Shown: positions 7,819 through 48,983, counted from the first letter of the stretch. The stretch is DNA of 64,000 bases from Acidimicrobiia bacterium (GCA_040902845.1 JBBDWM010000034.1:147001-211000), one strand, 5' to 3'. A program made the numbers and translations. Notes: a model not told the origin generated them from the sequence alone.

Positions 7819-9693
7819 TTGATGACGATTCCGGGCTCGGAAAGCCGGGGACCGGTCTCAAGGGCTTTCCACAGACACCCGATATCACTTGAAATGGTTG
7901 GTGACGGCGCTTCTGAGCGACCGCCACCCGACCTCCACGCTGAGCCCTGGGGACGTCGCGCTCTCATCGTTGGACTGACGGGTGTGCTCGCTACTTCAGC
8001 CATCTTCGGATGGGTGTGGATCGACGCCGACCGCAGCGCCGAGGAACGGCTTATCAGTCAGAGTGAGACCGTCGCTAGTTCAACCCACGAAGCCCTGGAG
8101 CGCGTAGCCGACAAGTTGGTGGCTTTGGCCGGCCTCTTCCGCGCCAGCGAGACGGTGACCCGCGACGAGTTCGACCGATTTGTGGCCGATATCGGTGCAA
8201 CTCCGGGTATGGAAGGCATCGGATTCGTGACACGGATCCCAGGCACAGATCTCGAAATCGTCGAGAGGCAGATGTCGGAAGAGTTGGGGCGAGAGGTGGT
8301 GGTTTTCGGTATCGGCCCTTCGGGCAGCCCTTCACGGGTGGAGCCAGGCGGGCATCACTCCGTTCTGCGCTATCTATCCGCTCCGAGCGAGACCTGGGAT
8401 GGCTTCACCGGGTTCGATCTTCGGTCCGAGGCTGGCATCAGCGCCACCCTGGACGCCGCCACCGCGAGCGGGGAAGCGGCAAGCACCGCCTTCCTGGAGC
8501 TTCTCGGTCAACCCGACGCTGACAATTTCCTCATGGTGCTTCCGGTCATAGATCCGTCTCGCGGGGTCCTCGATGGCTTCGTGGCGGCGCTCATGGACTC
8601 GTCGGAACTCGTCGAAGCCAACATCTCATCGGGCCTTCGACCCTTCCTCGCGTGGGATCTCGAGGATGCCACCGGAGAGCAAGTCCGAGCACTCGAAGCC
8701 GGGGTAGCGTCCATCGACTTCGGTGGGCGGGATTGGCTCCTCGAGGTCCAGCCGACCGCCAACTCGCCCTTCCTCGCCGATCGGATCGGGGCTCTTGTCA
8801 TCCTCGGCCTAGGGCTGATTGCCAGCACATTGGCAGCCATCGCTTTCTTCTTCTGGCGACAGCGGGTCGAGGCAGCCGCCGAGCTGCAAACGGTTCGTGA
8901 ACTGAATGCGGCCAAGGATCGATTCATAGCCTCGGTGAGCCACGAGTTGCGCACGCCGCTCACCGGAATCCTCGGGTATGCCGCGGTGCTACAGGACGAG
9001 GATCAGGCGACATCCCAGGGGGAGCAGCGTGAAATGCTGCACTCGATCAGCCAGAGCGCCAACGACCTCGCCCACATCATTGATGACCTGCTGGTTGCCG
9101 CTCGGTTCGAGATAGGTGAGATCTCCATCACCACGGTACCGGTCTCGTTACGGGCCGCGATCCTGGATGTGGCCAACGGTTCGGAGACCGCATTCGAGGT
9201 CGCCCTCGAAATCGACGAGACAGGCAGCGACATGGCACTCGCCGACCCGATGCGGGTCCGTCAGATTGTGCGGAATCTGCTTGAGAACGTCCAGCGGCAC
9301 GGCGGTGACCGGGTGCGAATCAGGATCGCTTCCGATGAGACCCTGGTCCACCTCGAGATCAAGGACGATGGGCCCGGGATTCCGGACACGGTGGTCGACA
9401 CGGTCTTTGAGCCATATCAAAGGTTCCACAACATCATTGGAGTCACCGAAGCCTTGGGTTTGGGTCTGAGTGTCTCTCGCCAGCTCGCTCAGTTGATGGA
9501 AGGCGAGCTGAGCTATGACCGTCGTAGCGGTTGGACTGTCTTCACCCTCACCCTTCCCACCGTTGCCAGCCAAGCCGACGTGCGCCATCTCCCTCCGCCT
9601 CGCCCCGTGTTCGCGGTCGCTCGGCCGGCCGGTCAGACAGGCACCGAGACCCGGGAGGCCGACCGGAAGGTCATCCCCATCCGTGGTCATTAG
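7819..9693 (+). CDS. sensor histidine kinase with an extracytoplasmic CHASE-like sensor domain (orphan, no adjacent response regulator)
   Basis: HisKA H-box FIASVSHELRTPLTGILGYA. HATPase_c N/G boxes (LLENVQRHGG, IKDDGPGI, GLGLSV). Two TM segments flanking a ~280-aa extracytoplasmic domain with RDEFDRFV-type CHASE features. Confidence 0.8.
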   Translation: MMTIPGSESRGPVSRAFHRHPISLEMVGDGASERPPPDLHAEPWGRRALIVGLTGVLATSAIFGWVWIDADRSAEERLISQSETVASSTHEALERVADKLVALAGLFRASETVTRDEFDRFVADIGATPGMEGIGFVTRIPGTDLEIVERQMSEELGREVVVFGIGPSGSPSRVEPGGHHSVLRYLSAPSETWDGFTGFDLRSEAGISATLDAATASGEAASTAFLELLGQPDADNFLMVLPVIDPSRGVLDGFVAALMDSSELVEANISSGLRPFLAWDLEDATGEQVRALEAGVASIDFGGRDWLLEVQPTANSPFLADRIGALVILGLGLIASTLAAIAFFFWRQRVEAAAELQTVRELNAAKDRFIASVSHELRTPLTGILGYAAVLQDEDQATSQGEQREMLHSISQSANDLAHIIDDLLVAARFEIGEISITTVPVSLRAAILDVANGSETAFEVALEIDETGSDMALADPMRVRQIVRNLLENVQRHGGDRVRIRIASDETLVHLEIKDDGPGIPDTVVDTVFEPYQRFHNIIGVTEALGLGLSVSRQLAQLMEGELSYDRRSGWTVFTLTLPTVASQADVRHLPPPRPVFAVARPAGQTGTETREADRKVIPIRGH

Positions 9694-9779
9694 CCGTTGC
9701 CGGTCCTGGATTCCATAATCACCGTCCGGTAACCGAACATCGACCCAACGCCCACAATCTGAGACCGTTTCGCACCCAG

Positions 9780-10092
9780 ATGGTGGCCCGCTCCCCCGAC
9801 GAGCAACATCGGGCGGCCACACCCCTCGAGCTGTTGTTCGACCTGGTCTTCGTGGTGGCGGTGGCACGGGCTTCATCCCAGCTCCATCACGGCATCGCGG
9901 GCGCTTCGCCTTCCGATGGCCCAGGGCCCGGCCGACAGGTTCCTAGCGCCTGTGACTGTGGTCTTGATCCTGTTGACCCCGTGGACCGGCGAGGCTCCAC
10001 TCTTGACCGGTCTGACGTTGGCGGCGCTGCTCGTCGTGAAGCGCCTGATCGGCCGAACACGGGGAAAGACCGGCACCGCTCGACCGGTATAG
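9780..10092 (+). pseudogene. remnant of an LtrA (low-temperature-requirement A) family membrane protein gene, truncated and frameshifted
   Basis: MVARSPDEQHRAATPLELLFDLVFVVAVARASSQLHHGIAG matches the LtrA N-terminus (ELFFDLVFVFA). The reading frame then degenerates, and a second frame continues with TM-like ...RFLAPVTVVLILLTPWTGEAPLLTGLTLAALLVVKRLIGR before a stop at 10090-10092. About 100 aa remain of a ~380-aa family. Confidence 0.45.
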
Positions 10093-10142
10093 TCACGAAA
10101 CTCGTCCGGTCGGACGTCCCCCAACGATCGAGGTCTTGCTCC

Positions 10143-10622
10143 ATGTTTCACGTCTCACGCACCAGTCTCCTCGTGGTTGCGGTCTTGGTGGCTGCGGCTT
10201 GCGGTGGTGGCTCGAGTTCCAGCGACGACAACCTGCCCCTCTCCGAAGATCAGGTCGAGATCTCTGGGGCACAGACGCTCACCATCTCCGAGCCCGGGGG
10301 GTGTGGCCCCCATGACTTCGAACCGGGTGCTTGGAACGGCATGTTCAGCACCGACGGCTCCGAGCCGTGGCTGCTCGACGTCACCATCGTCACCTTCGAG
10401 GCACCAAAGGTCTACGAGACGTCGGTCGAGGACGAATCGGGTAAGGCCAGCATCTTCTTGACCAATGGGGCCGGCACCACCTACGAGACCACCGACGGGA
10501 CAGGGATATTCGCCATCGACGAGGGTGGTCTCAGCGGGTCACTCGACATCACTTTGACCAACACCGACGACGACTCAACGGTCAGCCTGAATGGCAGCTT
10601 CACCTGCGAGGACCTCAGCTGA
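10143..10622 (+). CDS. putative secreted lipoprotein (hypothetical)
   Basis: MFHVSRTSLLVVAVLVAAACGGGSSSSDD: signal peptide with a lipobox-like AAAC followed by a Ser-rich linker. The long upstream extension of this ORF in the track is the LtrA remnant. Confidence 0.55.
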   Translation: MFHVSRTSLLVVAVLVAAACGGGSSSSDDNLPLSEDQVEISGAQTLTISEPGGCGPHDFEPGAWNGMFSTDGSEPWLLDVTIVTFEAPKVYETSVEDESGKASIFLTNGAGTTYETTDGTGIFAIDEGGLSGSLDITLTNTDDDSTVSLNGSFTCEDLS

Positions 10623-10630
10623 GGCCCTGA

Positions 10631-12058
10631 TCAGCCGATCAGAGTCTTCTCGATGATGTCGATTGCATGATCGATGTGCTCGATCGTGGTCCTTCGGTTG
10701 AGGATTGCGAAGCGGAGCACGAACCGGTTGTCGACCATCGTGGGTGACACATGTACCACCCGATCCCGGTTGATCGCTTCCATCGCCGCCCGCCCCTGAT
10801 CGTCGTCACGGAAGCGGAAGGCGACGATGGAGAGGCCCGGTCGCCAAGGGGTCTCGATGCCGTCGATCCCGGCCAACCGGTTGTAGGCCGACTCGGCCAG
10901 GTCGAGACTCTGGTCCAATGCCTCCCGGAACGGGGCCACCCCGTGGAGATGGAGGGGAAGCCAGACCTGTAGGCCTCGAAACGGTCGTGACAACTCGGGG
11001 CCCAACGAGGCGATGTCTCGCAACCCGGAATGGCTGTCCTCGGCGAGGAGGTAGGCGCCACGCCCTTGGTTGGCGTCGATCAGATGTGCCTCCTCCCTCA
11101 CCAACAGGGCACCGTTGCCGAAGGGGATGGAGAGGCCCTTGTGGGGGTCGATGGAGATCGAGTCGGCCCGCTCGATTCCGGTGAGCCGGGCCCGGCCCCG
11201 GTCGGTCAGCTGGAAGAAGCCGCCGTATGCGCCATCGATATGGAACCAGAGCTCGTTGGTCGCCGCTACCTCGGCAATGTCCAGGAGCGGATCGACAGTT
11301 CCTGTGTCGGTGGTCCCCGCCGACCCCACCACCAGGAATGGCTGTTGCCCGGCTTTGCGGTCCCTATCGATGGCTGCAGTGAGCGCTTCGGGGTCCATAC
11401 GGAGGTCGGCGTCGACAGCTACGACCCGGATCTGGTCGTTGCGGAACCCGGCAAGACGGGCTGCCTTGGCCACTGAATGATGGGTGTGGGTGGTGAGGTA
11501 GAGGACGCCTCGTGTCAGGTCGTCACCCAGTCGGGAGGTGCGGGCGGCGACGATCGCGGTGAAGTTGGCCAGCGAGCCGCCGGAGAGCATGAGGCCGGAA
11601 GCCTTCTCGCCGAGATCGAACAGCGACGTCATCCAGGCGATGACTCCGTGCTCTATGGCGCTCATACCCGGTGCGGCTGCTGCGACCCCGGTGTAGCGGT
11701 TGAGCCCGGCGGCGAGAAACTCCGCCAGGGCGGCGGTGTACAGGCCACCGTTGGGGATGTAGGAGAGGTGGCCACCGGACGGGTGGTAGAACCCTGAGCG
11801 GCCGGCCTCATCGATGTCGGTCAGGATCGATTGCAGTGGTCGACCGTCTTCCGACGGAGGGTCAAGCAGACGCTCGACCAGGGCAGGGTCGAGTTCGATA
11901 CCGACGGCAGGCATCGTGGCTGCCTGTCCGATCCAATCCTCCAAGAATGAAAGGATGTTGGCGGTGAGCTCTGCGCGCTCGCCCCGGTCGGGCTCGAGAG
12001 ACTTCGACATCGGGGTCAAGGTAGCCCACGCGGGGGGCTCCAGATTGAGTTTCGGCAT
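10631..12058 (-). CDS. pyridoxal-dependent decarboxylase (group II, aromatic-L-amino-acid / glutamate decarboxylase family)
   Basis: PLP-lysine motif SISIDPHKGLSIPFG. Conserved HTHHSVAKAARLAG and DGAYGG motifs. 475 aa. Confidence 0.85.
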   Translation of the reverse strand: MPKLNLEPPAWATLTPMSKSLEPDRGERAELTANILSFLEDWIGQAATMPAVGIELDPALVERLLDPPSEDGRPLQSILTDIDEAGRSGFYHPSGGHLSYIPNGGLYTAALAEFLAAGLNRYTGVAAAAPGMSAIEHGVIAWMTSLFDLGEKASGLMLSGGSLANFTAIVAARTSRLGDDLTRGVLYLTTHTHHSVAKAARLAGFRNDQIRVVAVDADLRMDPEALTAAIDRDRKAGQQPFLVVGSAGTTDTGTVDPLLDIAEVAATNELWFHIDGAYGGFFQLTDRGRARLTGIERADSISIDPHKGLSIPFGNGALLVREEAHLIDANQGRGAYLLAEDSHSGLRDIASLGPELSRPFRGLQVWLPLHLHGVAPFREALDQSLDLAESAYNRLAGIDGIETPWRPGLSIVAFRFRDDDQGRAAMEAINRDRVVHVSPTMVDNRFVLRFAILNRRTTIEHIDHAIDIIEKTLIG

Positions 12059-16627: not shown

Positions 16628-17134
16628 ATGTCATTGACCACTCAAGACGTCTGGGAGGCAATGGAGGACTCGATATTCGGGGTCTTGGCATTCGTCAATC
16701 CCAATGGCGAACCCAGATCCGCCGGCGTCTGTTATGTGATCGACGGGAGTTCAGTCCTCATCTCCTCAGGCATGGACTCGTGGAAGGTGCGCCACATCGA
16801 GGCCAACCCAAACGTGTCGATGACGATCACCGTGCCCAAGCACATCCCATTCCTGCCCTTCATCAAGATCCCTGCCGCCACTATCACCTTTCAAGGCGAG
16901 GCCGAGATTCTGCGCGTCACGGACGTCGATTCGCCCGTCGTGGCAAGGCTCCTACGCGGTCTCGATCTGGGTCGGCATGCGGTTGAGGACACTCGCCTCA
17001 TTCGGGTGACCCCTCGCGGTGATTTCGTCACCTACGGGATCGGAATGCCCTTAATGCAGATGCGCAAGGTCGACCAGGCGAGGGGACGGGCGCCATGTGG
17101 GACCGCTCGCGAGACCGCGAGCACCCAGGTTTGA
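16628..17134 (+). CDS. pyridoxamine 5'-phosphate oxidase family protein (FMN/F420-binding split barrel)
   Basis: IFGVLAFVNPNGEPRSAGVCYVIDGSSVLI pattern of PNPOx-like split-barrel proteins. 168 aa. Confidence 0.7.
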   Translation: MSLTTQDVWEAMEDSIFGVLAFVNPNGEPRSAGVCYVIDGSSVLISSGMDSWKVRHIEANPNVSMTITVPKHIPFLPFIKIPAATITFQGEAEILRVTDVDSPVVARLLRGLDLGRHAVEDTRLIRVTPRGDFVTYGIGMPLMQMRKVDQARGRAPCGTARETASTQV

Positions 17135-17170: not shown

Positions 17171-17848
17171 TCAATCCTCGGCCAGACCCCAGAACGGCCC
17201 CTTCAGACCCACCCTCCTGAAGTAGTCCTTTGCCTCCGTCGGCTCGCGTCGTTGATACCCGAAGTCGAGTCGCCCCTCGTACCACCGGCTGGCCAGACGC
17301 CACAACGTGGCGGTTTCCATCACGTAGCCCTTCTGATAATCGTGAGCTTGCAACCAGTCGGTGAGACACCCTTCGGAGCAGAACAGACGTTGGTTGGAAC
17401 AGGTGTGGACCACGTCATCCCACATCTGCGCCACCGGCACCAGGAAGTGGGCGACCCAATCGGTGGCCGGAGGCGACTCCCGGCTGACGATCCAGGCCGC
17501 GGGCCGATCGCATCCCGGGCACCGGGTTGCGACCAAGACATCAGGTTCCTCGGTTATGAGATGGGGGAGCGCGAACGAATCCCAGGAACAGCCGCCCCAC
17601 CACAAGGCGTTGGCGCCCATCACGGAGAACCCCATCGGTATCGCCGAGAACGGGTGCGCCATCACGATTTCACCGGTCTCATCCAGAACTAGGTGTCTTT
17701 GGGTTGCTAGCTCGGCGAGGCTGTTGGTGATCAACTCGACCGACATGCCGAGTTGGCCTGCGAGTTGTCCCGCTGTTGGTGCCCTGCCGGTTCTGCGAAA
17801 CGACTGGTAGATGGCCAGCCGAACATCTTCCGTGCCCATCGGTTTCAA
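17171..17848 (-). CDS. alkylmercury lyase (MerB) family protein homolog with an N-terminal HTH
   Basis: WGGCSWDSFALPHLI aligns with MerB YAWCALDTLIFPALI (catalytic Cys96 and Asp99 conserved). QRLFCSEGCLTDW aligns with the Cys159 region SFCCHVHFF...DW. ATGA overlap with the upstream ALDH. Confidence 0.55.
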   Translation of the reverse strand: MKPMGTEDVRLAIYQSFRRTGRAPTAGQLAGQLGMSVELITNSLAELATQRHLVLDETGEIVMAHPFSAIPMGFSVMGANALWWGGCSWDSFALPHLITEEPDVLVATRCPGCDRPAAWIVSRESPPATDWVAHFLVPVAQMWDDVVHTCSNQRLFCSEGCLTDWLQAHDYQKGYVMETATLWRLASRWYEGRLDFGYQRREPTEAKDYFRRVGLKGPFWGLAED

Positions 17849-19308
17849 CCGACTGTGCCCTGATTGACCTGAACTGTCTTCAGGTCGGAGTGGAAATCGA
17901 GGGCGTAGTCGCCCCCCTCCCGGCCTATCCCTGAGATCCGGGCCCCCCCAAAGGGCGCGGTCAGGTCACGAATCAGGAAGGTGTTCACCCAAATCGTCCC
18001 GGCCCTGATGGCACGCCCCACCCGCTCGGCCCGTTCCTCGGAGCCGGTGTAGACGATGCCGGACAGCCCGTATTGGGTGGAATTGGCCAGGGCGATCGCC
18101 TCGGCTTCGGTGGTAAAGGTCTGATAGGTGAGCACCGGCCCGAAGACCTCGCGTTGCACCACCTCGGACTCGTTCGACTTGGGCTCGATCAGCGTCGGTT
18201 CATACCACAACCCGTCTTGTTTCCATCGCTCACCGCCACGGACGATCCGGTCACCAGCATCCCTGGCTCGTCTCACGAAGCCATCGACCCGTGCCAGATG
18301 GTCGGGGTGGATCAGCGGGCTGATCGTGGTGAGCGGACTTCGGCTGTCGCCGAGCACATGGGCGTCGGTGAACCGGTGAAACAACTCCAGGAAGTCGCCC
18401 GAGACACTGTCCTCCACCAGGAGCCGGGTGCCGGCGAGGCAGACCTGTCCCGCGTCGTCGTATTGACCGGCCGCCTTTTCGGCCGCCGCCTCCAGATCGG
18501 AGTCGGCGAAGACCACAAACGGGCCCTTGCCGCCGAGCTCGGCGGTGAAGGGGACGATGTTGCCGGCGGCGGCGATCCCGATGTGCCGCGCGGTCTCCGG
18601 TGAGCCGGTGAAGGAGATTCGACGCACCCTGCGGTCGGACACCAACGCCGCTCCGACCTCGTCACCGATGCCCTGGACCACGTTCAAGACTCCGGGGGGC
18701 AGACCCGCCTGGTCTGCGAGATCAGCGAGAAGGGAAGCGGAGAGTGGGGCCCACTCGGCCGGCTTGAGGATCACGGGGTTGCCGGCAGTAAGGGCCGGGG
18801 CCAGCTTCCAGGTTGAGAGCAGCCAGGGGGCGTTCCAGGGGGTGATGATCACCGCCGGTCCTGCGGGCATTCGCTGCACCTGGTTGTCGGTGCCCTTCGA
18901 CGACCAGCGACGGCCCTCCCATTCGGAGGCCAGGTCGGCGTAGTTGCGGAGATTCTCGGCGCCCCTATGGATGACCCGGGCCTGCAGGCTCTCGAGGAGC
19001 ATGGCCATGTCGACACACTCGACCTGGGCGATGACGTCGATGTTCTGGTCGATTACGTCGGCGAGACGATGCAGGTACTCGCCACGCTCCTTGGGGGTGA
19101 GCGCCGCCCAGCCGGGGAATGCCGTCACCGCCGAGCTGACCGCGTCGTCTGCAGTCAGGGCATCACCCCTGGCGACGTCCGCGAGCTTCCAATCCCAGTC
19201 GAGTGGGGAGCGCACCTCGAAGGTATTGGGCGACGCAACCCGCTTGCCTCCGATGTAGTGATCGGGGGAAACGGCGTATTCGGAGATCTCGACTCGTGTG
19301 GTTGGCAT
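17845..19308 (-). CDS. aldehyde dehydrogenase (5-carboxymethyl-2-hydroxymuconate / 2-hydroxymuconate semialdehyde dehydrogenase-like)
   Basis: ALDH motifs ITPWNAP, ELGGKGPFVVFADSDL, GQVCLAGTRLLV. The start is set at the Met beginning MPTTRVEISEY...HYIGGK. The longer track ORF would collide with the marR start. Confidence 0.85.
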   Translation of the reverse strand: MPTTRVEISEYAVSPDHYIGGKRVASPNTFEVRSPLDWDWKLADVARGDALTADDAVSSAVTAFPGWAALTPKERGEYLHRLADVIDQNIDVIAQVECVDMAMLLESLQARVIHRGAENLRNYADLASEWEGRRWSSKGTDNQVQRMPAGPAVIITPWNAPWLLSTWKLAPALTAGNPVILKPAEWAPLSASLLADLADQAGLPPGVLNVVQGIGDEVGAALVSDRRVRRISFTGSPETARHIGIAAAGNIVPFTAELGGKGPFVVFADSDLEAAAEKAAGQYDDAGQVCLAGTRLLVEDSVSGDFLELFHRFTDAHVLGDSRSPLTTISPLIHPDHLARVDGFVRRARDAGDRIVRGGERWKQDGLWYEPTLIEPKSNESEVVQREVFGPVLTYQTFTTEAEAIALANSTQYGLSGIVYTGSEERAERVGRAIRAGTIWVNTFLIRDLTAPFGGARISGIGREGGDYALDFHSDLKTVQVNQGTVG

Positions 19309-19363
19309 GGCAGATGCGGATCGTTCGCAAGCTAAGGATAAACTCCCTGCCCCGTACCACCCC

Positions 19364-19912
19364 ATGCCAAGACCACTCATCGACCACGATCCCGAAGTCG
19401 TGCTCGAGGCGGAGCGAGATATTCGTGCCCGGCTCGGGGATCGGCAGCTCGACTTTGACGCACTCCTCGCCGTCTCCAACATCTATCGCGCTGCCAACGC
19501 GGTGCGCAATCGGATGGAAAGGGAGGTCCTGGGACCGGAAGGATTGTCCTGGGGAGGGTTCACGATCCTCTTCGTCCTTTGGGTGTGGGGAGAGCGCGAG
19601 ACCGGCCAACTGGCCGACGACTGTGGGCTGGCCAAGGGGACCCTGAGCGGCATGCTCGGCACCCTCGAGAAGACAGGCCTCGTGTCACGCGCCCGTCATC
19701 CTGAGGACGGGCGCCGGGTGATCGTCGACCTGGAGGAAGGTGGCCTGGAGCTGATCGAGCGGGTTTTTCCCCGGTTCAACGAGCACGAGACGAAGTTCAC
19801 ATCGAAACTCGGCCAGAAGGAGCGCGGTGAGCTGGCCCGCCTGCTTCGCATCGTCACAGCCACCGCCGACGATCTTCCACTCGTGGCCGACGACTGGGCG
19901 ACGGATCACTAA
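19364..19912 (+). CDS. MarR family transcriptional regulator (HpaR-like candidate)
   Basis: wHTH core GFTILFVLWVWGERETGQLADDCGLAKGTLSGMLGTLEKTGLVSRARHPEDGRRVIVDLEEGG. Divergent from the ALDH/MerB-like operon and immediately 5' of the extradiol dioxygenase. Confidence 0.8.
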   Translation: MPRPLIDHDPEVVLEAERDIRARLGDRQLDFDALLAVSNIYRAANAVRNRMEREVLGPEGLSWGGFTILFVLWVWGERETGQLADDCGLAKGTLSGMLGTLEKTGLVSRARHPEDGRRVIVDLEEGGLELIERVFPRFNEHETKFTSKLGQKERGELARLLRIVTATADDLPLVADDWATDH

Positions 19913-19952: not shown

Positions 19953-20828
19953 ATGGGTGAGATAGTCGGCGCCGGGCTGATCAGTCACGCACCCACGATC
20001 ATGTTCGACGAGGCGACCCGTCTCGAGCTCAACGAGGGCGAGGAGATCTCCCTGGTACCCGGGCTGATTCGGCTCCGCACCGAAGTATTCGCTCGTCTCC
20101 AACCGGACACGATCGTGATCGTCGACTCTCATTGGTTCTCCACGGTTGAGCATCTGATCTCGGCGCATGCCCGGCGTCAGGGCATCTTCACCTCATCGGA
20201 GCTACCCCGGGGAATGGCTCAGATCCCTTATGACTACCCCGGTGACCCGGAGCTGGCCAAGCTCTCGGCCACCCTCGGCTCGGAGCTCGGCACGCCCACC
20301 CATGCCAACGAAGACGATTACATGCCCGTCTATTACGCCACCATCAACCTCGTCCACTATCTGCGAAAAGACGAGAAGGTCGTCTCGGTTTCCCTGGTCC
20401 AGACCGGGGATACCGACGACTTCATGACGATGGGTGAAGCCATCGGGGAAGCAGTATCACGGCTCGACCGAAGAGTTGTGGTGCTGGCATCGGGTGGCAT
20501 GAGCCACACCTTCTGGCCCCTCAAGGAGATCTCGAAGCACGAGGCCTCCGACCCGGTGCACATCATCACCCCTGCCGCCCGGGCGGCCGATGAGGAGCGA
20601 CTCGAGATGATGGTGGCCGGCGACCACGCTCGGGTCGTCGACACCATGGACGACTACTTCGAGTATGCGCCCGAGGGGCGATTCGGCCACTATCTGATGA
20701 TGCTCGGCGCCATCGGCGGCCGGAACTGCGTGGCTCGCGGGGAGTTGTTCTCCGACTACGAGAACGCTACCGGCACCGGACAGGTCCACGTGTGGTTCGA
20801 GCGGCCTTCGGGGGGCTGGACCGCCTGA
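19953..20828 (+). CDS. class III extradiol ring-cleavage dioxygenase (LigB family; homoprotocatechuate 2,3-dioxygenase-like)
   Basis: LigB-fold features: N-terminal GLISHAPTIMF, VIVDSHWF, and Fe-ligand His regions (SGGMSHTF). 291 aa. GGAGG SD upstream. Confidence 0.8.
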   Translation: MGEIVGAGLISHAPTIMFDEATRLELNEGEEISLVPGLIRLRTEVFARLQPDTIVIVDSHWFSTVEHLISAHARRQGIFTSSELPRGMAQIPYDYPGDPELAKLSATLGSELGTPTHANEDDYMPVYYATINLVHYLRKDEKVVSVSLVQTGDTDDFMTMGEAIGEAVSRLDRRVVVLASGGMSHTFWPLKEISKHEASDPVHIITPAARAADEERLEMMVAGDHARVVDTMDDYFEYAPEGRFGHYLMMLGAIGGRNCVARGELFSDYENATGTGQVHVWFERPSGGWTA

Positions 20829-20848: not shown

Positions 20849-22384
20849 ATGCCACAATTTCACCCAGTGGTGGCAATCAGCGCGGCCAATGATTTGACGT
20901 CCGAGCTCGATGAGCTCGCCAGGGCGGTAGACGGCCTGGTCTTTGGCGACGAGCCCGCCGGATGGATTCACGCCAGGGAACGTGACCGCGTCGTCATGAC
21001 GATCCGCTCCTATCTGCTGCCCAGAATGCTCAACCCGTCGACCCCGCTCCTGGTGGTGTTCGCAGGCCCGACCGGTGCGGGGAAGTCGACTCTCCTCAAC
21101 AGTGTCTCCGGTCTCGAAATCGCCGAGACCGGGCCGCTGCGCCCGACGACCAGGGACCCGGTGGTCCTGGCCGCGGATATCTCTGGTTATGACCGAGTCG
21201 GTGGCATCGATTGCGTTGTGGTCGAGGGTCGAGCACCGATCCTCGGCTCGATGAGTCTGGTGGACACTCCCGACCTCGATTCCACGACCCTTGCCCATCG
21301 GGTCGCCGCGGAGACCATGATCGATCACGCCGATGTCGTCGTATTCGTCACCTCCGCCCTCAGATATGCCGACCTGGTCCCCTGGGAGGTATTGCGTCGG
21401 GCACAGTCCCGGGGTGCGCCGGTCATTCACGTATTGAACCGGGTGACCAGCGCGACGACGGGGGCGACGACCGATTATCGGAATCGGCTGAAGCGGGAGG
21501 GCACAGACGGCAACCTCCTCGTGGTGCACGAGCACCACCTATCCGCCGGCTCGCCATCGGTTCCCTCGGTCGCAGTGCGTTCCTTGCGCAGGCGTCTGAT
21601 GAGCCACGTCGAAAAATCTCAATCGGAAAGAGCCGAAGTCGTCCGTTCGGTGCTGTGGGTGACCTTGGGACAGGCGCGCGATCTCATCGCGACGGCGGAG
21701 CTCGGTTCTACCGAAGCCGACCTCGTCGAGGGGATGCTGGATCAGGTGTTCACCACCGACCTGGAAAGGATCCTGACTTCGGCGGCGGGCCAATTCGAGC
21801 CCGGCTTCGACGTCTCGCCGCTCGCCCGTCACGGCAGGGCTCACCGGCGACGGGTCCGCAGTTGGATGCGGAGAATGGCGCCTGCGGTCGAGCTCGTGGC
21901 AGCCTCGAGGCATCGTGTGCTCGATACCTTGATCACCGCGGTCGCCACCGACCTCAGGGTCTCCATCCACGACGGTGCCGTTGCCCTCCACGACCAGGGC
22001 CTGGTTGCCACGAGACTCGACCAGACGACTCATGCCGCGATTGTCGAGGCCGTCGCCCTCTGGTGGGTGGAATTGGAGGAAATGTGTGCTCCGACGGTGG
22101 GAAATCGCTCTGACATTGGGGCCCTGTTGTTGGCGATCTCCACGCTCAGGGTCGATCTGACGCTCGAAGCCGCCCTCGGTGCGGTCCAGCCGGGCACCGA
22201 GACCGCAACGTCGATAAGCGAGGCCCGGGATGCCCTGGTTCGGGCCCTCACAACGGTGTACGACTCGGTGCGGGACCACCTAGTCTCGTCGGTCATCGAT
22301 GAGGTCACTCCGGCCCCGGACGTGGACCGGGCCAGGACGCTCGTGGCCGAAGTGGTGGCGCGGTCGGCCTTCGCCAATGCGTGA
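20849..22384 (+). CDS. dynamin-like / HSR1-type GTPase family protein (DLP-1)
   Basis: G1 VVFAGPTGAGKSTLLNSV, G2 PTTRD, G3 LVDTPDLDS, G4-like VLNRVT, followed by a ~250-aa helical C-terminal region. Start taken at the ATG at 20849 (MPQFHPVV). Confidence 0.55.
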   Translation: MPQFHPVVAISAANDLTSELDELARAVDGLVFGDEPAGWIHARERDRVVMTIRSYLLPRMLNPSTPLLVVFAGPTGAGKSTLLNSVSGLEIAETGPLRPTTRDPVVLAADISGYDRVGGIDCVVVEGRAPILGSMSLVDTPDLDSTTLAHRVAAETMIDHADVVVFVTSALRYADLVPWEVLRRAQSRGAPVIHVLNRVTSATTGATTDYRNRLKREGTDGNLLVVHEHHLSAGSPSVPSVAVRSLRRRLMSHVEKSQSERAEVVRSVLWVTLGQARDLIATAELGSTEADLVEGMLDQVFTTDLERILTSAAGQFEPGFDVSPLARHGRAHRRRVRSWMRRMAPAVELVAASRHRVLDTLITAVATDLRVSIHDGAVALHDQGLVATRLDQTTHAAIVEAVALWWVELEEMCAPTVGNRSDIGALLLAISTLRVDLTLEAALGAVQPGTETATSISEARDALVRALTTVYDSVRDHLVSSVIDEVTPAPDVDRARTLVAEVVARSAFANA

Positions 22385-23603
22385 CGCCATCATCGGCCTC
22401 CTGCCGATGATCGACCAGGCCCTGGCCGATTGCGTCGGAGTGGTGGACCAGCGGACATTGGAACCGGTTGCCCACATGCGAAACCGGATGATGGCCCGGT
22501 TGGCCTACCCCGACGACATGCTGTTGGCAGCCCTCGCCGGCGGCACCGGCTCCGGCAAGTCGAGTCTCTTCAATGCCATCGCCGGAGAGGACGTGGCCGC
22601 CACGGGCGGTGTTCGCCCCACCACTTCGCACCCCCAGGCGCTGGTGCCGATGTCACGAGAGTCGGCAATTGCGGGTTATCTCGACGAGATAGGGGTCGAT
22701 GATCGGGTGTCCCATGAGGGACGTGAATGGCTTTGCCTGATCGACCTCCCTGACACCGATAGTGTCGAAGTCGACCACCGACAACGGGTGGACTCGCTCC
22801 TGCCCCGACTCGATTGCGTGGTGTGGGTAGTCGATCCGGAGAAATACCGAGACGCCGCCCTGCACCACGGCTATCTGGCTCCCATGGCGGCTTATCACAG
22901 CCAATTCGTCTTCGTTCTCAACCAGAGCGACCGGCTGACCGACGACGATATCTCGCGGGTGAAAGCCGATCTGGTGTCGGCCTTGGTCGAAGACGGGATC
23001 GAGAATCCGACGGTCTTCGACACCGTGGCCCAACCCCCCGCCGGGCCCACACTGGGGATCGAAGGGCTGCTGGCGCATCTCGAGCAGGAGCTGGGTGGGT
23101 CGGTGTACGAGAAGCTGCTGGTCGATCTCCGGGCCGGGTGCTCATCGCTCCTGGAGGCAAGTGGTGACGGCTCCGCCTTGGATTTCGGCAACCGTTGGGA
23201 AGGAATCATGGATCAGGCGAGCGCTCGGATCGATGCCGGAGACCTCTCCGGAGCCGGCCACCAGGTTGCCACCTTCCTCGAGGAAATCGCCGATGAGACC
23301 GGTGGTGAGCTTGGAAGTTCGATAGGAGAAATCGCGGCCCGGGCACCCGGGGTGGTGCTCGGCGCTGCGCCCTTCGGCTCCCAATCCCATGCCCTGAAGC
23401 CACGACGAAGGTGGTGGGGACGTCGGGTAGACAATCCCTCGGTCTCGGCCGCCGATTCTGGCTCAAACAGGTTGAAAGCCGCCCTGGAGAGCGAGGTCGG
23501 GGATCCGGTGCGGGCGGTGGTGGCGAAGAAGGCCAGGGCGCAGGCCTCGATCTCCGAACTGACGCTGGCCGTGAATGAGCTGACCCTGCGGTCCGCCGGG
23601 TAA
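22377..23603 (+). CDS. dynamin-like / HSR1-type GTPase family protein (DLP-2)
   Basis: G1 LAGGTGSGKSSLFNAI, G2 PTTSHP, G3 IDLPDTDS, G4 VLNQSD, plus a helical C-terminus. ATG at 22377 overlaps the DLP-1 stop by 8 nt. Confidence 0.55.
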   Translation: MRDAIIGLLPMIDQALADCVGVVDQRTLEPVAHMRNRMMARLAYPDDMLLAALAGGTGSGKSSLFNAIAGEDVAATGGVRPTTSHPQALVPMSRESAIAGYLDEIGVDDRVSHEGREWLCLIDLPDTDSVEVDHRQRVDSLLPRLDCVVWVVDPEKYRDAALHHGYLAPMAAYHSQFVFVLNQSDRLTDDDISRVKADLVSALVEDGIENPTVFDTVAQPPAGPTLGIEGLLAHLEQELGGSVYEKLLVDLRAGCSSLLEASGDGSALDFGNRWEGIMDQASARIDAGDLSGAGHQVATFLEEIADETGGELGSSIGEIAARAPGVVLGAAPFGSQSHALKPRRRWWGRRVDNPSVSAADSGSNRLKAALESEVGDPVRAVVAKKARAQASISELTLAVNELTLRSAG

Positions 23604-23618
23604 GTACTCTCGCCGGCC

Positions 23619-24392
23619 ATGGACCCGAGATGGATCAAGACCGCGGTGGTGGTGGTCCTGGCGCTGATCCTCTACTTCGTCCTCGTAAAGGTCGGCAACC
23701 GCTTCATCGAAGGAATCGCCCTCCGCGGGCCGCAGGCCGCCTCCCGCTCCCGCACCCTGTGGTTGATGGTCCGCCGGGTCATCCAGGTCACGCTCATCGT
23801 GCTCGTGGTCCTCATGGTGTTCACGATCTGGGGATTCAGCATGGCGCCGTTCCTGGCCTTGGGGACCGTGATCGGCGCCGCCATCGGCTTCGGCGCCCAG
23901 AATGTGGTCAGGGATGTGCTTGCCGGCTTCTTCATCCTCGCCGAGGACCAGTACCAGATCGGTGACACGGTGTCGATCAGCGGAGCCACGGGCACGGTCG
24001 AAGACATCCAATTCCGGGTCACGGTGCTTCGAGACTTCGAGGGCAACGTCCATTACGTGCCGAACGGCCAGATAACGGTCGCCTCCAACTTCACCAGGGT
24101 CTTCGCCCAGCCGGTGATCGATATCTCGATCGCCTATGACCAGGATGTGGACCGTGCCATGGAGGTGATGCTCGACGAGCTCACCAAGATGGCGGACGAT
24201 CCCGAGTTGGGGCCCATGCTTCGGGGCCCCGCCGAGATGCTCGGTGTCCAGGATGTCGGTGACTCCGGGGTCGTGCTCAGGGGGCGGCTCACCTCTGACG
24301 GCCACCAGCGCACGACGGTGCGGAGGGAGGCATTGCTTCGCATCAAGAATCGTTTCGACGCCGAGGGAATTCGGTTCTCGGGGGCAAAGTAA
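23619..24392 (+). CDS. mechanosensitive ion channel family protein (MscS-like)
   Basis: Three N-terminal TM helices and the MscS beta-domain signature GDTVSISGATGTVEDIQFRVTVLRDFEGNVHYVPNGQI. 15 nt after the DLP-2 stop. Confidence 0.85.
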   Translation: MDPRWIKTAVVVVLALILYFVLVKVGNRFIEGIALRGPQAASRSRTLWLMVRRVIQVTLIVLVVLMVFTIWGFSMAPFLALGTVIGAAIGFGAQNVVRDVLAGFFILAEDQYQIGDTVSISGATGTVEDIQFRVTVLRDFEGNVHYVPNGQITVASNFTRVFAQPVIDISIAYDQDVDRAMEVMLDELTKMADDPELGPMLRGPAEMLGVQDVGDSGVVLRGRLTSDGHQRTTVRREALLRIKNRFDAEGIRFSGAK

Positions 24393-24395
24393 CGC

Positions 24396-25328
24396 CTACT
24401 TGATTGGTGGCGCAGGGACGATGACAGCCAACGCGTCCGGCTCCCATTGGACGGTTCCACCATCGACCATTCCCAGTGCCTCGCCGTCCGCCTGAACCTC
24501 CACTGGCGGGTCCGCCTTCAGCTCAAATAGGTCGACCCTGCGCCATACCTCCATGTCGGGGATCGACTCCAGATCCTTCCCCGCAAAGAGGGTGACCGCG
24601 ATACGCGGTATGTGTCTCCGCCGAAGGCGCTTGACCACCAAGACCGTCATCGGGTCAGGGTCGGCGGGTGCAACCTTGAGCGGCACCCTCCCGAAGTAGG
24701 TGTAGATCTCACGGAACTGGATCATGGCCGCGGTCACATAGGCCTCACGATCACCCGAGTGGACCGCTACATGCGGTTTGCGGCGGGGAAAGTCCTGAAG
24801 CGCGGTGCCGAACGCGGAGCGGGCGTAGTGGATCGAGCCGAACCGGTACTTGCGATATGGCTCCTTTTCGGCCCGTTGCACAACTGCGGCGTCGAGGCCG
24901 AACCCACAGGCGAAGATCGAATGGTGCACGGTCTCGGTCGATCCTCGCTGCAGGGTCATGGTGGCGACACCTACCCGCCGAATCTGGGGCGACGTCACCA
25001 GGAGACGCGCCGCCTTGATCGGTTTGGAGGGGATACCCATCAATCTGGCAAAGACGTTGGTGGTCCCCACCGGGATCACACCGAGCGAGGCCACGGTTCC
25101 GATCACCCCCTGGCTGACATGATGGACCATCCCGTCGCCTCCCATCGCGACGACGATGTCCGCCCCTCCTTCTGCAGATTCCCGCGCCTTCTCGGTGGCT
25201 TCGGCAGGTGATCCGGGCCAGATCGAATCGACGTCCGCGACCCGATCGAGTGTTGCCATGACGTCGCGGTGAGAGCCACCGGTGAACTGAGAGGCAGCCG
25301 GGTTGGCTATGACCACTATCCGGTGCAT
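24396..25328 (-). CDS. diacylglycerol kinase catalytic domain (DAGK_cat) family lipid kinase
   Basis: DIVVAMGGDGMVHHV and GVIPVGTTNVFAR motifs of the DAGK/YegS/sphingosine-kinase-type catalytic domain. Confidence 0.85.
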   Translation of the reverse strand: MHRIVVIANPAASQFTGGSHRDVMATLDRVADVDSIWPGSPAEATEKARESAEGGADIVVAMGGDGMVHHVSQGVIGTVASLGVIPVGTTNVFARLMGIPSKPIKAARLLVTSPQIRRVGVATMTLQRGSTETVHHSIFACGFGLDAAVVQRAEKEPYRKYRFGSIHYARSAFGTALQDFPRRKPHVAVHSGDREAYVTAAMIQFREIYTYFGRVPLKVAPADPDPMTVLVVKRLRRRHIPRIAVTLFAGKDLESIPDMEVWRRVDLFELKADPPVEVQADGEALGMVDGGTVQWEPDALAVIVPAPPIK

Positions 25329-39666: not shown

Positions 39667-40101
39667 TTATCCCCTTACCACCAGCCAGGTCCCGAGGATC
39701 ACCAAACCCATCCCTAGCGCCCGTGGGCCGTCCACCAGGCGCGCCTCAGCGAACCACCCCAGGTGCTCGATCGCGGCCCCGAGGATCAGGGTGGCCGCGG
39801 TGAACAGGGTGAGGCCTGCGCCGAGACCGAGGCGGTCGACGGTGATTCCAAGGGCCGACACAATCACCAACCCCATCAGACCGGCAGTGAACACCCACCA
39901 GGGAAGGCCCTTGAGCTCGCCCAAGCGGCCTCCGCGGAGGGCAAGCATGAGGAGCCCGACGGCGAGGCCTCCGCCTCCGTAGGTTACGAACGTCGAGGCG
40001 AGGGTGCCTACGCGTTGCTCCATCACTCCCAGAAACTGTGACTGCAGGGCGCCGGCCAACCCACCAACGGCCCCCACCAGGACAACAAAAATGAAACTCA
40101 T
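39667..40101 (-). CDS. DMT superfamily small transporter (YdcZ/DUF606-like)
   Basis: Four TM helices, ~144 aa, with a MSFIFVVLVGAVGGLAGALQSQF start typical of DUF606. Confidence 0.6.
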   Translation of the reverse strand: MSFIFVVLVGAVGGLAGALQSQFLGVMEQRVGTLASTFVTYGGGGLAVGLLMLALRGGRLGELKGLPWWVFTAGLMGLVIVSALGITVDRLGLGAGLTLFTAATLILGAAIEHLGWFAEARLVDGPRALGMGLVILGTWLVVRG

Positions 40102-40171
40102 GATTGGCTAAGACTGGTCGGTTCACACGTGTCCTTGGTGGATCGGTGAGGCTCGGAGGCGACCCGATGGT

Positions 40172-40666
40172 TCATTCGAGGGGGATTTCCCACTCGTAGG
40201 AGAATTTGGCGACTCGGAGTATCAGTGAAGTCTCAACTCTGGTCACCCCCTGCATGTGACCCAGGCTCTGTGATACGAACTCGAGAAGATGCTCCTGGTC
40301 ATGAAAGAAGGCTTCGACGATCACGTCGTGGCGACCGGTGGCCATACCGACGTATCTCACCTCTGGGTGGGTCATCAACTCGGCGACTATCTCTTCCATC
40401 ATCGGGAGTGATACCGATATCCCGAGAATGGCCGACATGGTCATGCCCACCGCTCTCGGCGTGGGCACCGCCACGATGTTGATGAGGTCGTCCTCGATCA
40501 GTCGTGAGATCCGGTTCCTGACGGTGGCTTCGCTCACATTGAGCAATCGCGCCACTTCACGGTTCGAGGTGCGACCGTTCTTCTGGAGGATGGCCACGAT
40601 TCGACGGTCGATCTCGTCGAGACCTCCGCGTCGACCGACATTCCGCATCGGCTGCTGGCTACTCAT
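40172..40666 (-). CDS. Lrp/AsnC family transcriptional regulator
   Basis: LDEIDRRIVAILQKNGRTSNREVARLLNVSEATVRNRISRL HTH, plus a RAM ligand-binding domain. Confidence 0.9.
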   Translation of the reverse strand: MSSQQPMRNVGRRGGLDEIDRRIVAILQKNGRTSNREVARLLNVSEATVRNRISRLIEDDLINIVAVPTPRAVGMTMSAILGISVSLPMMEEIVAELMTHPEVRYVGMATGRHDVIVEAFFHDQEHLLEFVSQSLGHMQGVTRVETSLILRVAKFSYEWEIPLE

Positions 40667-40669
40667 AAC

Positions 40670-40710
40670 GCACTATGCAAGCCCCCAGGGTTCGCATATG
40701 CAACAAATGA
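40670..40710. promoter_or_regulatory. candidate Lrp operator: TATGCAA direct repeat and perfect palindrome GCATATGC (40694-40701) in the lrp / permease divergent intergenic region
   Basis: Seen directly. Lrp-family proteins autoregulate through AT-rich dyads near their own start. Confidence 0.3.
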
Positions 40711-40785
40711 GGGGGTGATATTCACGACACGCGCCTCTTTTTGACCCCTACAGTGTCGACACGCGCAGTCTGTAAGGAGGTCGTC

Positions 40786-42438
40786 GTGACAGAACCGGAC
40801 ACCACCGGCTCCCGCCCCGGTGTGTTTTCCAGACCCGCATCGGGCCTGATCCGGGTGGCTGGGTCGACCGACGTCTTCATCTTCAATGTCGGGCTGGTCT
40901 CGATCGGCATCGCGATCGCATTCAACCAGTTGTACGGTCCGAGTCTCTACCCGGGCTCCGCTCCCTGGATCTCGACCCTGCTGGCCGTTGCCGGGATGCT
41001 GTTCGTAGCCATGACGTTCTATTCGTGGTCGATCACGTTCCCGAGGTCGGGTGGAGTGTACGTATCACTGTCGCGTTCGGTGAGCCCGGGCGTCGGGTTC
41101 GTGCTTTCTCTCATAGAGACCATGATCCTGATGTATTACGCGGCGTTAGCGTCTGCCCTGATCGCCACCGTTGGCCTTTCTTCGTTCTTCGGGACGGTTG
41201 GCTTCATCGGTGAGAGTGACATGCTCATTTCGTGGGCAACGTGGACGTCGTCACCGCAGGGAATCTTCTGGATCGGGACCGGGGTGCTGGTTCTTGCAGG
41301 CATCCTCCTTACGCTGGGAACCCGTCGCTACTTCGCGGTGCAGAAGGTGCTGTTCGCCGTGGCGGTCATAGGCACCCTGGTCATCATTGGGGTGTTGCTC
41401 TTTGGTGACACAGCCACCTTCTTCTCCAATTTCGAGAGGTTCACCGGCCTGACCGAACAGCAGGTGATTTCTGGAGCAGCGGAACTGGGCTGGGCATCGG
41501 CGCCAATCAGCTTTAGCGCTTCGTGGGCTTTTCTCGTTTGGCCCCTCCTTCCCCTCCTTGGGGCGGTGCAATCGGTCGGCATAGGCGGGGAGATCAAATC
41601 GGTCCGGCGCAGCCAGATGTATGGAATGCTCGGTGCGCTCATCAGCACGGGCCTAGTCATCGCATTGGTCGACATCCTGGCCACCAGGGTCTTCGGATAC
41701 GACTTCCAGGGAGCAATCGGATTCAATTCGATCGTTGGGCTCGTCGATCCTTCGACGAATGCCTGGGCTCTGTCGACTGAATCGTCGATCGGGGCCAGTC
41801 CTTGGTTCACGGTCTTGGTGGGAATCCTGGCTGACAATCTGCTCATAGTGGTCATCGTGATGGCGACCTTCGTTGCCTGGATCTGGTTCTGGGTGCCGGC
41901 CGAGATCGCATACACGACGAGAACGATGATCGCCTGGTCGTTCGACAGAATTGCCCCCGACCGACTCGGCGCGGTGAGCGAGCGCTACAACACCCCGACC
42001 ATGGCGATCTGGCTGTCGACAGCAGGTTCCATCGTCTTCATGTGGTTCATCGCCTTTCAGGCGATCGCCTTGCTCACATTGATCGAGGCTCTGACGATCG
42101 TCTGGGGCACGGCCATGGTTGCGGCGATCGTGTTCCCCAAGACCCGTCCCAACCTCTTCAAAGCCTCACCGGCCTCTGAACAACGCCTGTTTGGTATTCC
42201 TCTGATGACGATCTCGGGGACGGTGGCGGCTGTCTTCATGCTCGTTGTCCTGATCATGTTGTGGGTCGATCCCAATGCCGCCGGACCCCTGTTCTCATCG
42301 GAGACGATTCGGGGCGAGTTCTGGCTGCTCGTAGGCGTGGTCGTGTTTGGCATCGTGTGGTATCTAGGGGCGAAGGCCTACCGCCGCAGGCAAGGCATCG
42401 ATATCTCATTGGCGTTCAAGCAGATTCCTATCGAGTGA
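40786..42438 (+). CDS. APC (amino acid-polyamine-organocation) superfamily permease
   Basis: 12-13 TM helices with APC-type architecture. GTG start at 40786 preceded by AAGGAGG. Divergent from lrp. Confidence 0.8.
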   Translation: MTEPDTTGSRPGVFSRPASGLIRVAGSTDVFIFNVGLVSIGIAIAFNQLYGPSLYPGSAPWISTLLAVAGMLFVAMTFYSWSITFPRSGGVYVSLSRSVSPGVGFVLSLIETMILMYYAALASALIATVGLSSFFGTVGFIGESDMLISWATWTSSPQGIFWIGTGVLVLAGILLTLGTRRYFAVQKVLFAVAVIGTLVIIGVLLFGDTATFFSNFERFTGLTEQQVISGAAELGWASAPISFSASWAFLVWPLLPLLGAVQSVGIGGEIKSVRRSQMYGMLGALISTGLVIALVDILATRVFGYDFQGAIGFNSIVGLVDPSTNAWALSTESSIGASPWFTVLVGILADNLLIVVIVMATFVAWIWFWVPAEIAYTTRTMIAWSFDRIAPDRLGAVSERYNTPTMAIWLSTAGSIVFMWFIAFQAIALLTLIEALTIVWGTAMVAAIVFPKTRPNLFKASPASEQRLFGIPLMTISGTVAAVFMLVVLIMLWVDPNAAGPLFSSETIRGEFWLLVGVVVFGIVWYLGAKAYRRRQGIDISLAFKQIPIE

Positions 42439-44161: not shown

Positions 44162-44179
44162 CAGGAGGTCAATCTGCGG

Positions 44180-45544: not shown

Positions 45545-45555
45545 AAGGAGGGGCG

Positions 45556-47755: not shown

Positions 47756-47781
47756 GTCTTGCACTCTGGCGTTAGGCGGAC

Positions 47782-48939: not shown

Positions 48940-48983
48940 AGGAGACCGATTCCTGTCCCAGCGCGGGTCTACTCTCGCCTCCG

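Follow-up and report, generated by a model that had tools for sequence, protein, structure and literature searches.

Dynamin-like proteins (DLPs) of the DynA/DynB type are best known from Streptomyces, where they stabilise FtsZ rings during sporulation septation. DynB carries two transmembrane (TM) segments as an anchor, and DynA is its cytoplasmic partner; in S. venezuelae, the two are encoded by vnz_12110 (DynA) and vnz_12105 (DynB). The association of DynAB with the divisome (FtsZ, SepF2, SsgB, and SepX) has been shown in Streptomyces experiments only, and orthologues of DynB reportedly occur often in other genera, unicellular actinobacteria included. Here, we describe a tandem pair of dynamin-like genes, G1 and G2, followed directly by a gene for an MscS-family mechanosensitive channel, in a 64,000-nucleotide stretch of high-GC DNA (GC about 0.64) from an Acidimicrobiia bacterium (GCA_040902845.1 JBBDWM010000034.1:147001-211000; hereafter, the window). 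We consider it probable that G1 and G2 encode an Acidimicrobiia pair of the DynA/DynB type that remodels or stabilises membranes, and that the MscS gene was inserted beside them once and is not their functional partner. The locus comprises the following features, with lengths in amino acids (aa):

20849-22384, + strand: G1, DynA-type dynamin-like GTPase; the open reading frame (ORF) translates to 511 aa
22377-22384, + strand: G1/G2 translational-coupling junction, ATGCGTGA, with the G2 ATG within the last G1 codons
22377-23603, + strand: G2, DynB-type dynamin-like GTPase, short form; the ORF translates to 408 aa
23619-24392, + strand: MscS-family small-conductance mechanosensitive channel, 257 aa

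The G1/G2 junction is conserved across Acidimicrobiia. In ATGCGTGA, the G2 ATG and the G1 stop overlap by 8 nucleotides (nt), and an overlap of the form (A/G)TGNNTGA is kept in 12 of 12 Acidimicrobiia loci (the window, L055-L061, and L125-L128), including lineages in which G2 starts with GTG. The C-terminus of G1, A-R-S-x-F-A-N-A, which overlaps the G2 start, is strongly conserved as well (window 22366-22384, with the same junction in L055-L061 and L125-L128). Because G1 and G2 are paralogues (35% identity in the G domain, E 1e-19) and share this overlap in every one of the 12 loci, chance is an unlikely explanation for their arrangement. The layout of the reading frames shows that translation of the two genes is coupled through the 8-nt start/stop overlap, and such coupling would yield G1 and G2 in roughly equimolar amounts.

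A first-pass annotation, made from the sequence alone, had described two tandem, coupled GTPase genes followed by an MscS channel, and the ORFs and junctions match this description (8-nt overlap; 15 nt from the G2 TAA to the MscS start). Of the two protein lengths given there, 408 aa agrees with the G2 ORF, while 512 aa does not agree with the 511 aa of G1. The start of G1 may lie further downstream still, at GTG 20867, because an identical NCBI protein (P0001), annotated as a GTPase from an Acidimicrobiia metagenome-assembled genome, has 505 aa; relatives start with MVAI... The distance from the stop of the preceding dioxygenase gene (LigB, 20828) had been put at 20 nt, which is right if G1 starts at ATG 20849 and becomes 38 nt if it starts at the GTG.

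Kinship with the actinobacterial DynA/DynB pairs

G1 and G2 have one-to-one counterparts in Actinomycetia. We scanned genomes (one per species) and metagenomes for related loci. Among the matches listed, the genome scan gave 54 loci (L001-L054), none of them from Acidimicrobiia; about 45 of the 54 are Actinomycetia-type loci with the pair, from Streptomyces, Arthrobacter, Micromonospora, Nocardioides, Cutibacterium, Brevibacterium, Nonomuraea, and other genera. The metagenome scan also returned mostly Actinomycetia-type loci, and 63 metagenome loci were compared. Where both genes were covered, the first gene best matches G1 and the second best matches G2, in 45 genome and 63 metagenome loci listed. 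Since first and second genes match G1 and G2, respectively, these comparisons indicate that the duplication behind the pair is older than the split between Acidimicrobiia and Actinomycetia.

The gene context allows the Streptomyces members to be placed. Neighbour clustering and Pfam matches give the actinomycete context as a PrsW protease, the pair, a paralogue of the single-stranded DNA-binding protein (SSB), a thioester-domain protein (in Streptomyces), and an ABC-F ATPase. In L003-L048 and L065-L121, an ssbB-like SSB gene and an EttA-like ABC-F gene very often come after the pair, and a gene for a PrsW-family intramembrane protease often comes before it (for example, L018, 11512-15611; L013, 6536-13782). 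The ssbB gene of S. coelicolor is SCO2683, and SCO2682 encodes a sortase substrate; because the neighbours match these two genes, the Streptomyces pair was placed at SCO2685/SCO2684, of which sco2685 corresponds to sven2472. In the part of the supplement to a preprint on S. coelicolor DynAB that gives reverse-transcription primers, these are named sco2685 and sco2684, and the genes behind the names are unstated there. All four primers map inside the G1-like and G2-like Streptomyces genes, with 0-2 mismatches and in the right orientation. Furthermore, the G2-like proteins of actinomycetes carry two C-terminal hydrophobic helices. Judged from these matches, sco2685 and sco2684 are very probably dynA and dynB.

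Two observations on the actinomycete loci stand apart from this placement. S. coelicolor ssbB is needed for chromosome segregation in sporulation, so the pair there lies beside another sporulation-related gene. In addition, a few kb from the first pair, some contigs have another pair of the DynA/DynB type or one more DynA-type gene (L029, 256-9627; L100, 653-8354; L011, 1407-11675).

The Acidimicrobiia pair shares order and motifs with Streptomyces DynA/DynB, but differs in length and surroundings. In both, a dynA-type gene precedes a dynB-type gene, the two overlapping or abutting, and the proteins share GxTGxGKS, RPTT, and D-x-P-D-x-DS, to which the A type adds RYAD-x-VPW and the B type WVxDPEKY. 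A dynamin-like fold is also predicted to be common to them. By contrast, overall identity to G1 and G2 is about 25-32%, G1 is some 90 aa shorter than Streptomyces DynA, and G2 ends before the position of the two TM helices that anchor Streptomyces DynB and mediate SepX binding. The Streptomyces and other Actinomycetia pairs neighbour ssbB and ABC-F genes, whereas the neighbours here are genes for a LigB-type dioxygenase, MscS, and a diacylglycerol kinase-like lipid kinase (DAGK). On the sequence comparisons, we assign G1 and G2 to the DynA/DynB family with high but not complete confidence. The pair is thus not of an undescribed kind; it falls within a family already studied in Streptomyces.

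No division gene was found near the pair: there is none among the genes annotated between about 16.6 and 28.7 kb of the window, and none in the contigs syntenic with it. Sporulation is not known in the Acidimicrobiia host.

Fold, nucleotide motifs, and membrane anchor

Sequence-level evidence on the wider family of G1 and G2 is ambiguous. Checked against Pfam, as had been proposed, both proteins pass both of the competing profiles: Dynamin_N at 43.7 bits (G1) and 30.6 bits (G2), with a gathering score of 27, and MMR_HSR1 at 38.6 and 28.5 bits, with a gathering score of 21.9. The Dynamin_N match spans mainly profile positions 1-45 of 168, which is the P-loop part. Phmmer and profile searches with G1 and G2 against PDB sequences gave P-loop-level matches alone (EttA, MalK, Der, and IRG). 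Because of this ambiguity, alignments and structure predictions were made.

The predicted structures support a dynamin-like fold for both proteins. AlphaFold models of G1 (pLDDT 89.1, pTM 0.82) and G2 (pLDDT 91.1, pTM 0.84) each begin with N-terminal helices, which are followed by a G domain and an extended helical region; in G1, the G domain occupies about residues 66-230 and is followed by a long helical stalk. The long helical C-terminal regions proposed from the sequence are thus seen in both models. Foldseek searches of the PDB place IniA (6J72, E 4e-10), BDLP (2J68/2J69), Cj-DLP1/2 (5OWV/5OXF), Drp1, and MxA at the top for G1, followed by EHD and mitofusin/Fzo1, and place IniA (E 1e-8), Cj-DLP1, Fzo1, mitofusin-1/2, and BDLP at the top for G2. 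Across both models, the dynamin-family matches cover 350-700 aligned columns. The best global superpositions of G2 are with truncated Fzo1 and MFN1 (G domain plus HD1), at a TM-score of 0.47-0.51 and a root-mean-square deviation of 5.5-7 Å. These models support the view that G1 and G2 are dynamin-like proteins with a BDLP/mitofusin-type G domain and a helical neck or stalk.

We regard it as very improbable that G1 and G2 are instead Era/Der/HflX/MnmE-like translation- or RNA-associated GTPases with helical extensions. Such an identity could be read from the MMR_HSR1 gathering score that both pass, from the top sequence-level PDB matches (the G domains of Der/EngA and MnmE), and from source annotations that include '50S ribosome-binding GTPase'. 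However, the best scores against the NCBIfam equivalogs for HydF, Der, MnmE, Era, and HflX are 17-37 bits, about 10-fold under cut-offs of 116-380. MnmE is matched by Foldseek over the G domain only (about 300 columns, TM-score 0.17-0.20), whereas the full-length models align with dynamin-family structures. Neither protein has a KH, GTPase-tandem, or other RNA-binding domain, their C-terminal regions being predicted all-helical stalks, and the Actinomycetia orthologues are membrane-anchored. An Era/Der identity was rejected because Foldseek ranks dynamin-family structures first for the predicted models and the NCBIfam scores fall so far short. The first-pass reading of a dynamin-like pair, as opposed to GTPases of the Era/Der/HflX type, is therefore upheld by the IniA, BDLP, Cj-DLP1/2, and mitofusin fold matches.

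Other bacterial dynamin systems resemble G1 and G2 at the level of fold and gene organisation. IniA (6J72/6J73) is the top structural match for both models, and mycobacterial IniA/IniC is likewise a paired actinobacterial DLP operon, tied to envelope stress. IniA nevertheless lacks significant sequence similarity (the A3 profile search picks it up at no better than E 0.045, along a C-terminal stretch), and phmmer and profile searches gave no significant IniA match in the PDB for G1, G2, or the Streptomyces orthologues. We conclude from the models that IniA/IniC is a different family within the superfamily, with a likeness to G1 and G2 at the fold level. Cj-DLP1/Cj-DLP2, encoded side by side in an operon and expected to form a hetero-oligomer, and Nostoc BDLP share the G domain and neck/trunk with G1 and G2, but these proteins, at 600-730 aa, possess a complete trunk and a membrane paddle. 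With its 408 aa, G2 is closer to the mini-mitofusin/Fzo1 constructs of G domain plus HD1 named above, and no paddle was found in it.

A role in anti-phage defence, as for the LeoBC or 'Dynamins' systems, also seems very unlikely. For G1, PADLOC returns weak matches, LeoBC at E 3e-5 and LeoA at E 2.5e-4, and B. subtilis DynA is reported to contribute to phage defence. On the other hand, PADLOC gives no match for G2, the locus shows stable core-genome synteny among metabolic genes and not a variable defence island, and the G1/G2 family is vertically conserved across Actinobacteria.

The nucleotide-binding motifs are conserved, with departures from the classical GTPase pattern. The P-loops read GPTGAGKS (G1) and GGTGSGKS (G2), and switch I is RPTT in both. 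The G3 motif is DTPD in G1 (residues 139-142) and DLPD in G2 (residues 123-126); G4 is NQSD in G2 (residues 182-185) and NRVT, without the Asp, in G1 (residues 197-198). Homologue alignments of 101 and 111 sequences for the two proteins show an invariant P-loop, RPTT, and D-x-P-D, with NQxD as the G2-type G4. D-x-P-D is thus the G3 motif family-wide, an invariant Asp replacing the Gly of DxxG in both paralogues, and the DynA-type G4 is N/D-R-V without the guanine-specifying Asp. These alignments suggest that the A-type subunit may have a nucleotide specificity other than that of classical dynamins. The motifs reported at first pass (P-loop, switch Thr, D(T/L)PD, and the G4 of G2) were all recovered, except that the NxxD-like G4 claimed for both proteins is NRVT in G1.

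G2 belongs to a branch of the family that lacks the DynB membrane hairpin. In alignment A4, G2 and its Acidimicrobiia relatives end after the helix that precedes the TM hairpin, so that about 130 residues, comprising two TM helices and a return helix, are absent; the hairpin is present in the Cutibacterium, Arthrobacter, Nocardioides, and Streptomyces orthologues. G1, for its part, lacks both an insertion of about 30 residues in the G domain and the hydrophobic stalk segment of DynA-type proteins. An exhaustive profile search found 5,713 family representatives at E <= 1e-3, of which 3,028 reach E <= 1e-10. Among the best 150 of the 5,713, a TM-like segment is absent from 96 of the 103 forms shorter than 470 aa and present in 35 of the 39 longer ones. 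G2 is therefore typical of a TM-less branch, and the alignment evidence indicates that the pair represents this branch of the DynA/DynB family in Acidimicrobiia.

Two Arg-rich stretches are conserved in the pair. G2 carries an RRRW(W)xRR motif at residues 343-350 (RRRWWxRR in G2 itself), conserved within an otherwise variable, low-confidence loop, and G1 has a conserved Arg-rich stretch at residues 332-345 that ends in a conserved Pro. From the alignments, we infer that these Arg/Trp-rich motifs are the sole conserved candidates for membrane contact.

The TM-less branch bears on how this family works. DynA and DynB have been studied only in Streptomyces, in which the TM segments of DynB anchor the complex and bind SepX. 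The unannotated branch without this anchor is large, with forms of about 400 aa dominating the best 150 of some 5,700 representatives, and its members must reach the membrane, or act, in a different way. They offer a natural comparison for the role of the dynamin pair in actinobacteria that do not sporulate.

The MscS gene and the proposed mode of action

The channel gene downstream of the pair is of an ordinary type. It matches the three MscS domains in canonical order: MS_channel_1st (PF21088) at 22.8 bits, just under the cut-off of 23.1, MS_channel_2nd (PF00924) at 73.8 bits, and MS_channel_3rd (PF21082) at 30.6 bits. NCBIfam MscS models score 150 bits, under the equivalog cut-offs (500). 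Hydropathy places hydrophobic segments at residues 3-31 and 46-97, giving about three TM helices, which accompany the beta and C-terminal domains. Domain content, a length of 257 aa, and TM number are those of the E. coli YggB / Thermoanaerobacter MscS type, and nothing unusual was seen except the position after a DLP pair.

The G1-G2-MscS order is conserved within one clade of Acidimicrobiia. It occurs in the window and eight sequenced contigs (L055-L061 and L125), with one further contig, lacking DNA sequence, showing the same gene order. In the MscS-bearing contigs, G2 is 44-64% identical to the window G2, and across the nine loci the gap between G2 and MscS is 11-15 nt; co-transcription of G2 and MscS in this clade is likely, as judged from the spacing. 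The conservation extends well beyond the junction, to a block of 11-12 genes: aldehyde dehydrogenase, MarR-LigB-G1-G2-MscS, DAGK, ADP-ribosylglycohydrolase, and MFS-ADH-aminotransferase. Exceptions are a MarR gene uncalled or split in two contigs and the absence of MFS from L125. Because synteny extends over the entire block, the persistence of the MscS junction cannot be told apart from shared ancestry.

Outside this clade, and once within it, the pair stands without MscS. L126 keeps MarR-LigB-G1-G2 and DAGK, with an 87-nt gap between G2 and DAGK and no MscS remnant; it also lacks the ADP-ribosylglycohydrolase gene and the adjacent MFS gene, another MFS gene lying further on. Some caution is due here, as L126 has frameshifts (8493-10736: two internal stops in G2 and a split DAGK), and its state could mean either that a real deletion is combined with errors of long-read assembly or that the locus is decaying. 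MscS is absent from L127, where G2 is long and has the TM hairpin, and from the L128 and P0311 contigs, where G2 is short. The pair, its 8-nt overlap, and a downstream DAGK are retained in the deeper lineages L127 and L128; the upstream genes of L127, L128, and the P0311 contigs differ from those of the window. The intermediate relatives L062 and L063 likewise have no MscS, and unrelated genes lie downstream. Among the matches listed, an adjacent MscS gene was found in none of about 108 Actinomycetia-type loci; two genome loci listed do carry an MscS gene, on the opposite strand and at a distance of about 5-6 kb, and we treat these as background, and none of the 63 metagenome loci has MscS.

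This distribution fits a single gain. In a neighbour-joining tree of concatenated G1 and G2 (no bootstrap), L127 and L128 fall outside the MscS clade and L126 falls inside it, a pattern that fits one MscS gain, together with the upstream MarR-LigB insertion, and one loss. MscS would then be a neighbour acquired once in one Acidimicrobiia clade and not a conserved partner of the pair, and a module is not supported by the gene comparisons. The first-pass annotation had proposed a hard-wired membrane-stress module and suggested conservation of the DLP-DLP-MscS order as a check; the order proved to be confined to the one syntenic clade, lost in the nested L126, and absent from the deeper lineages. 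The tight, conserved-looking MscS junction therefore represents a single lineage-specific gene-order event and is not evidence of a functional module. A dependence of TM loss on MscS adjacency was considered separately and rejected, TM-less forms without MscS being found in L126, L128, and the P0311 contigs.

Given this history, the gene distribution offers little reason to expect functional coupling between the DLPs and MscS. In a dedicated membrane-stress module, release of tension by the channel would be paired with membrane repair or remodelling by the dynamins, and the TM-less G2 might use MscS as a platform. The shared strand, the short gap with likely co-transcription, an order kept in the window, eight sequenced contigs, and one further contig down to 44% G2 identity, and a G2 without its own TM anchor all speak for such a module, and a literature search for dynamin-like proteins with MscS, including as an operon, found no relevant paper linking them. 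Yet the single gain inside a fully syntenic block makes this conservation one of shared ancestry, and MscS is missing beside TM-less short G2 (L128 and the P0311 contigs), beside TM-bearing G2 (L127), from the nested L126, and from the Actinomycetia-type loci, so that we judge the module unlikely. Slightly less probable again is recruitment of the pair to the membrane by the co-transcribed MscS, or through tension-dependent lipid exposure that both would sense. If true, it would mean a unit for tension sensing and membrane remodelling, possibly under MarR control; we know of no described case in which a dynamin-like pair is coupled to a mechanosensitive channel.

We instead favour a DynA/DynB-type pair acting independently of its channel neighbour. 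G1 and G2 would form a heterotypic complex driven by nucleotide, either GTP or, for G1, possibly ATP. The complex would reach the cytoplasmic membrane peripherally, with the likeliest contacts being the Arg/Trp motifs at G2 343-350 and G1 332-345, on anionic lipids, or else a protein partner. By homology, it may remodel or stabilise the membrane, acting at the division site, as does Streptomyces DynAB, or in repair, as do IniA and B. subtilis DynA. MscS would serve as an ordinary tension-gated valve for osmolyte release, inserted downstream of the pair in the ancestor of the clade and probably co-transcribed with it, possibly on a longer MarR-LigB-G1-G2-MscS transcript.

Several points weigh against this interpretation. 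Dynamin membership rests on predicted structures and on Pfam matches that lie mainly in the P-loop, with MMR_HSR1 scoring similarly. The identification of sco2685/sco2684 with dynA/dynB is circumstantial. With Asp standing in for the Gly of DxxG in this family, and with no G4 Asp in G1, GTP specificity and hydrolysis are not guaranteed. By Kyte-Doolittle hydropathy, no TM-like or other hydrophobic membrane-binding segment was found in either protein; the maximal 19-residue means are 1.5 (G1) and 1.7 (G2), both in predicted bundle helices. The Arg/Trp motifs might also serve to bind a non-lipid ligand. Finally, an MscS gene kept at 11-15 nt despite a G2 identity of 44-64% is compatible with some benefit from co-expression.

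Neighbouring genes and the rest of the window

Three further genes flank the pair and MscS:

19298-19912, + strand: MarR-family (HpaR-like) regulator; Pfam MarR 44.7 bits; TIGR02337 50.8 bits, under cut-off
19953-20828, + strand: LigB-type extradiol dioxygenase (HpaD-like); Pfam LigB 97 bits; TIGR02298 144 bits, under cut-off
24396-25328, - strand: DAGK_cat/YegS-type lipid kinase; Pfam DAGK_cat 74.5 bits, YegS_C 31.8 bits

MarR is the first gene of the same-strand run and is preceded by the divergent aldehyde dehydrogenase gene. Its true start is probably later than 19298, because its relatives have 176-198 aa. LigB lies directly upstream of the pair throughout the contigs of the MscS clade, and L126 shares this arrangement; L127 and L128 do not. 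From the gene spacing, LigB may be co-transcribed with the pair.

A phenolic- or aromatic-induced operon of MarR-LigB-G1-G2-MscS under MarR control, in which ring cleavage would go together with shielding of the membrane from membrane-active aromatics, appears improbable. The five genes share a strand and have short gaps (LigB to G1, 36-60 nt in relatives and 20 or 38 nt here), the HpaR-like MarR and HpaD-like LigB adjoin the divergent aldehyde dehydrogenase gene, and a consensus scan predicted no terminator-like site between LigB and G1. That scan is uninformative for this phylum, however; it gave no promoter-like sites and terminator-like sites at chance level. An epimerase or PIG-L gene stands upstream of the pair in L127 and L128 in place of LigB, and because the upstream genes differ there, the MarR-LigB linkage shares a single origin with the MscS linkage. 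Both LigB and MarR also score under the HpaD and HpaR equivalog cut-offs.

The DAGK gene converges on MscS and lies outside the transcription unit of the pair. It is found downstream of the pair in the window, L055-L061, and L125-L128, converging directly on the pair or on MscS except in L127, where two genes intervene. As it is present in L127 and L128, which have neither MscS nor LigB, DAGK is a more deeply conserved neighbour than MscS.

No tRNA genes were found anywhere in the window. A gene for the compatible-solute enzyme mannosylglycerate synthase (MGS_GT plus MGS_C; 47782-49110, - strand), some 24 kb away from MscS, suggests osmoadaptation of the organism by mannosylglycerate, with no evident link to the DLP locus. 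The segment at 40000-47800 has a GC of 0.586-0.61, against about 0.64. It contains genes for an AsnC-type regulator, an amino-acid permease, two ORFs without a Pfam match, and glutamine-synthetase-like, AllG-like, and formamidase/acetamidase-like proteins; it looks like a cluster for the catabolism of nitrogen compounds and may stem from horizontal transfer. An alkylmercury lyase (MerB) homologue (17171-17848, - strand) and a PNPOx-like flavoprotein gene (16628-17134, + strand) are found a short way upstream of the aldehyde dehydrogenase gene.

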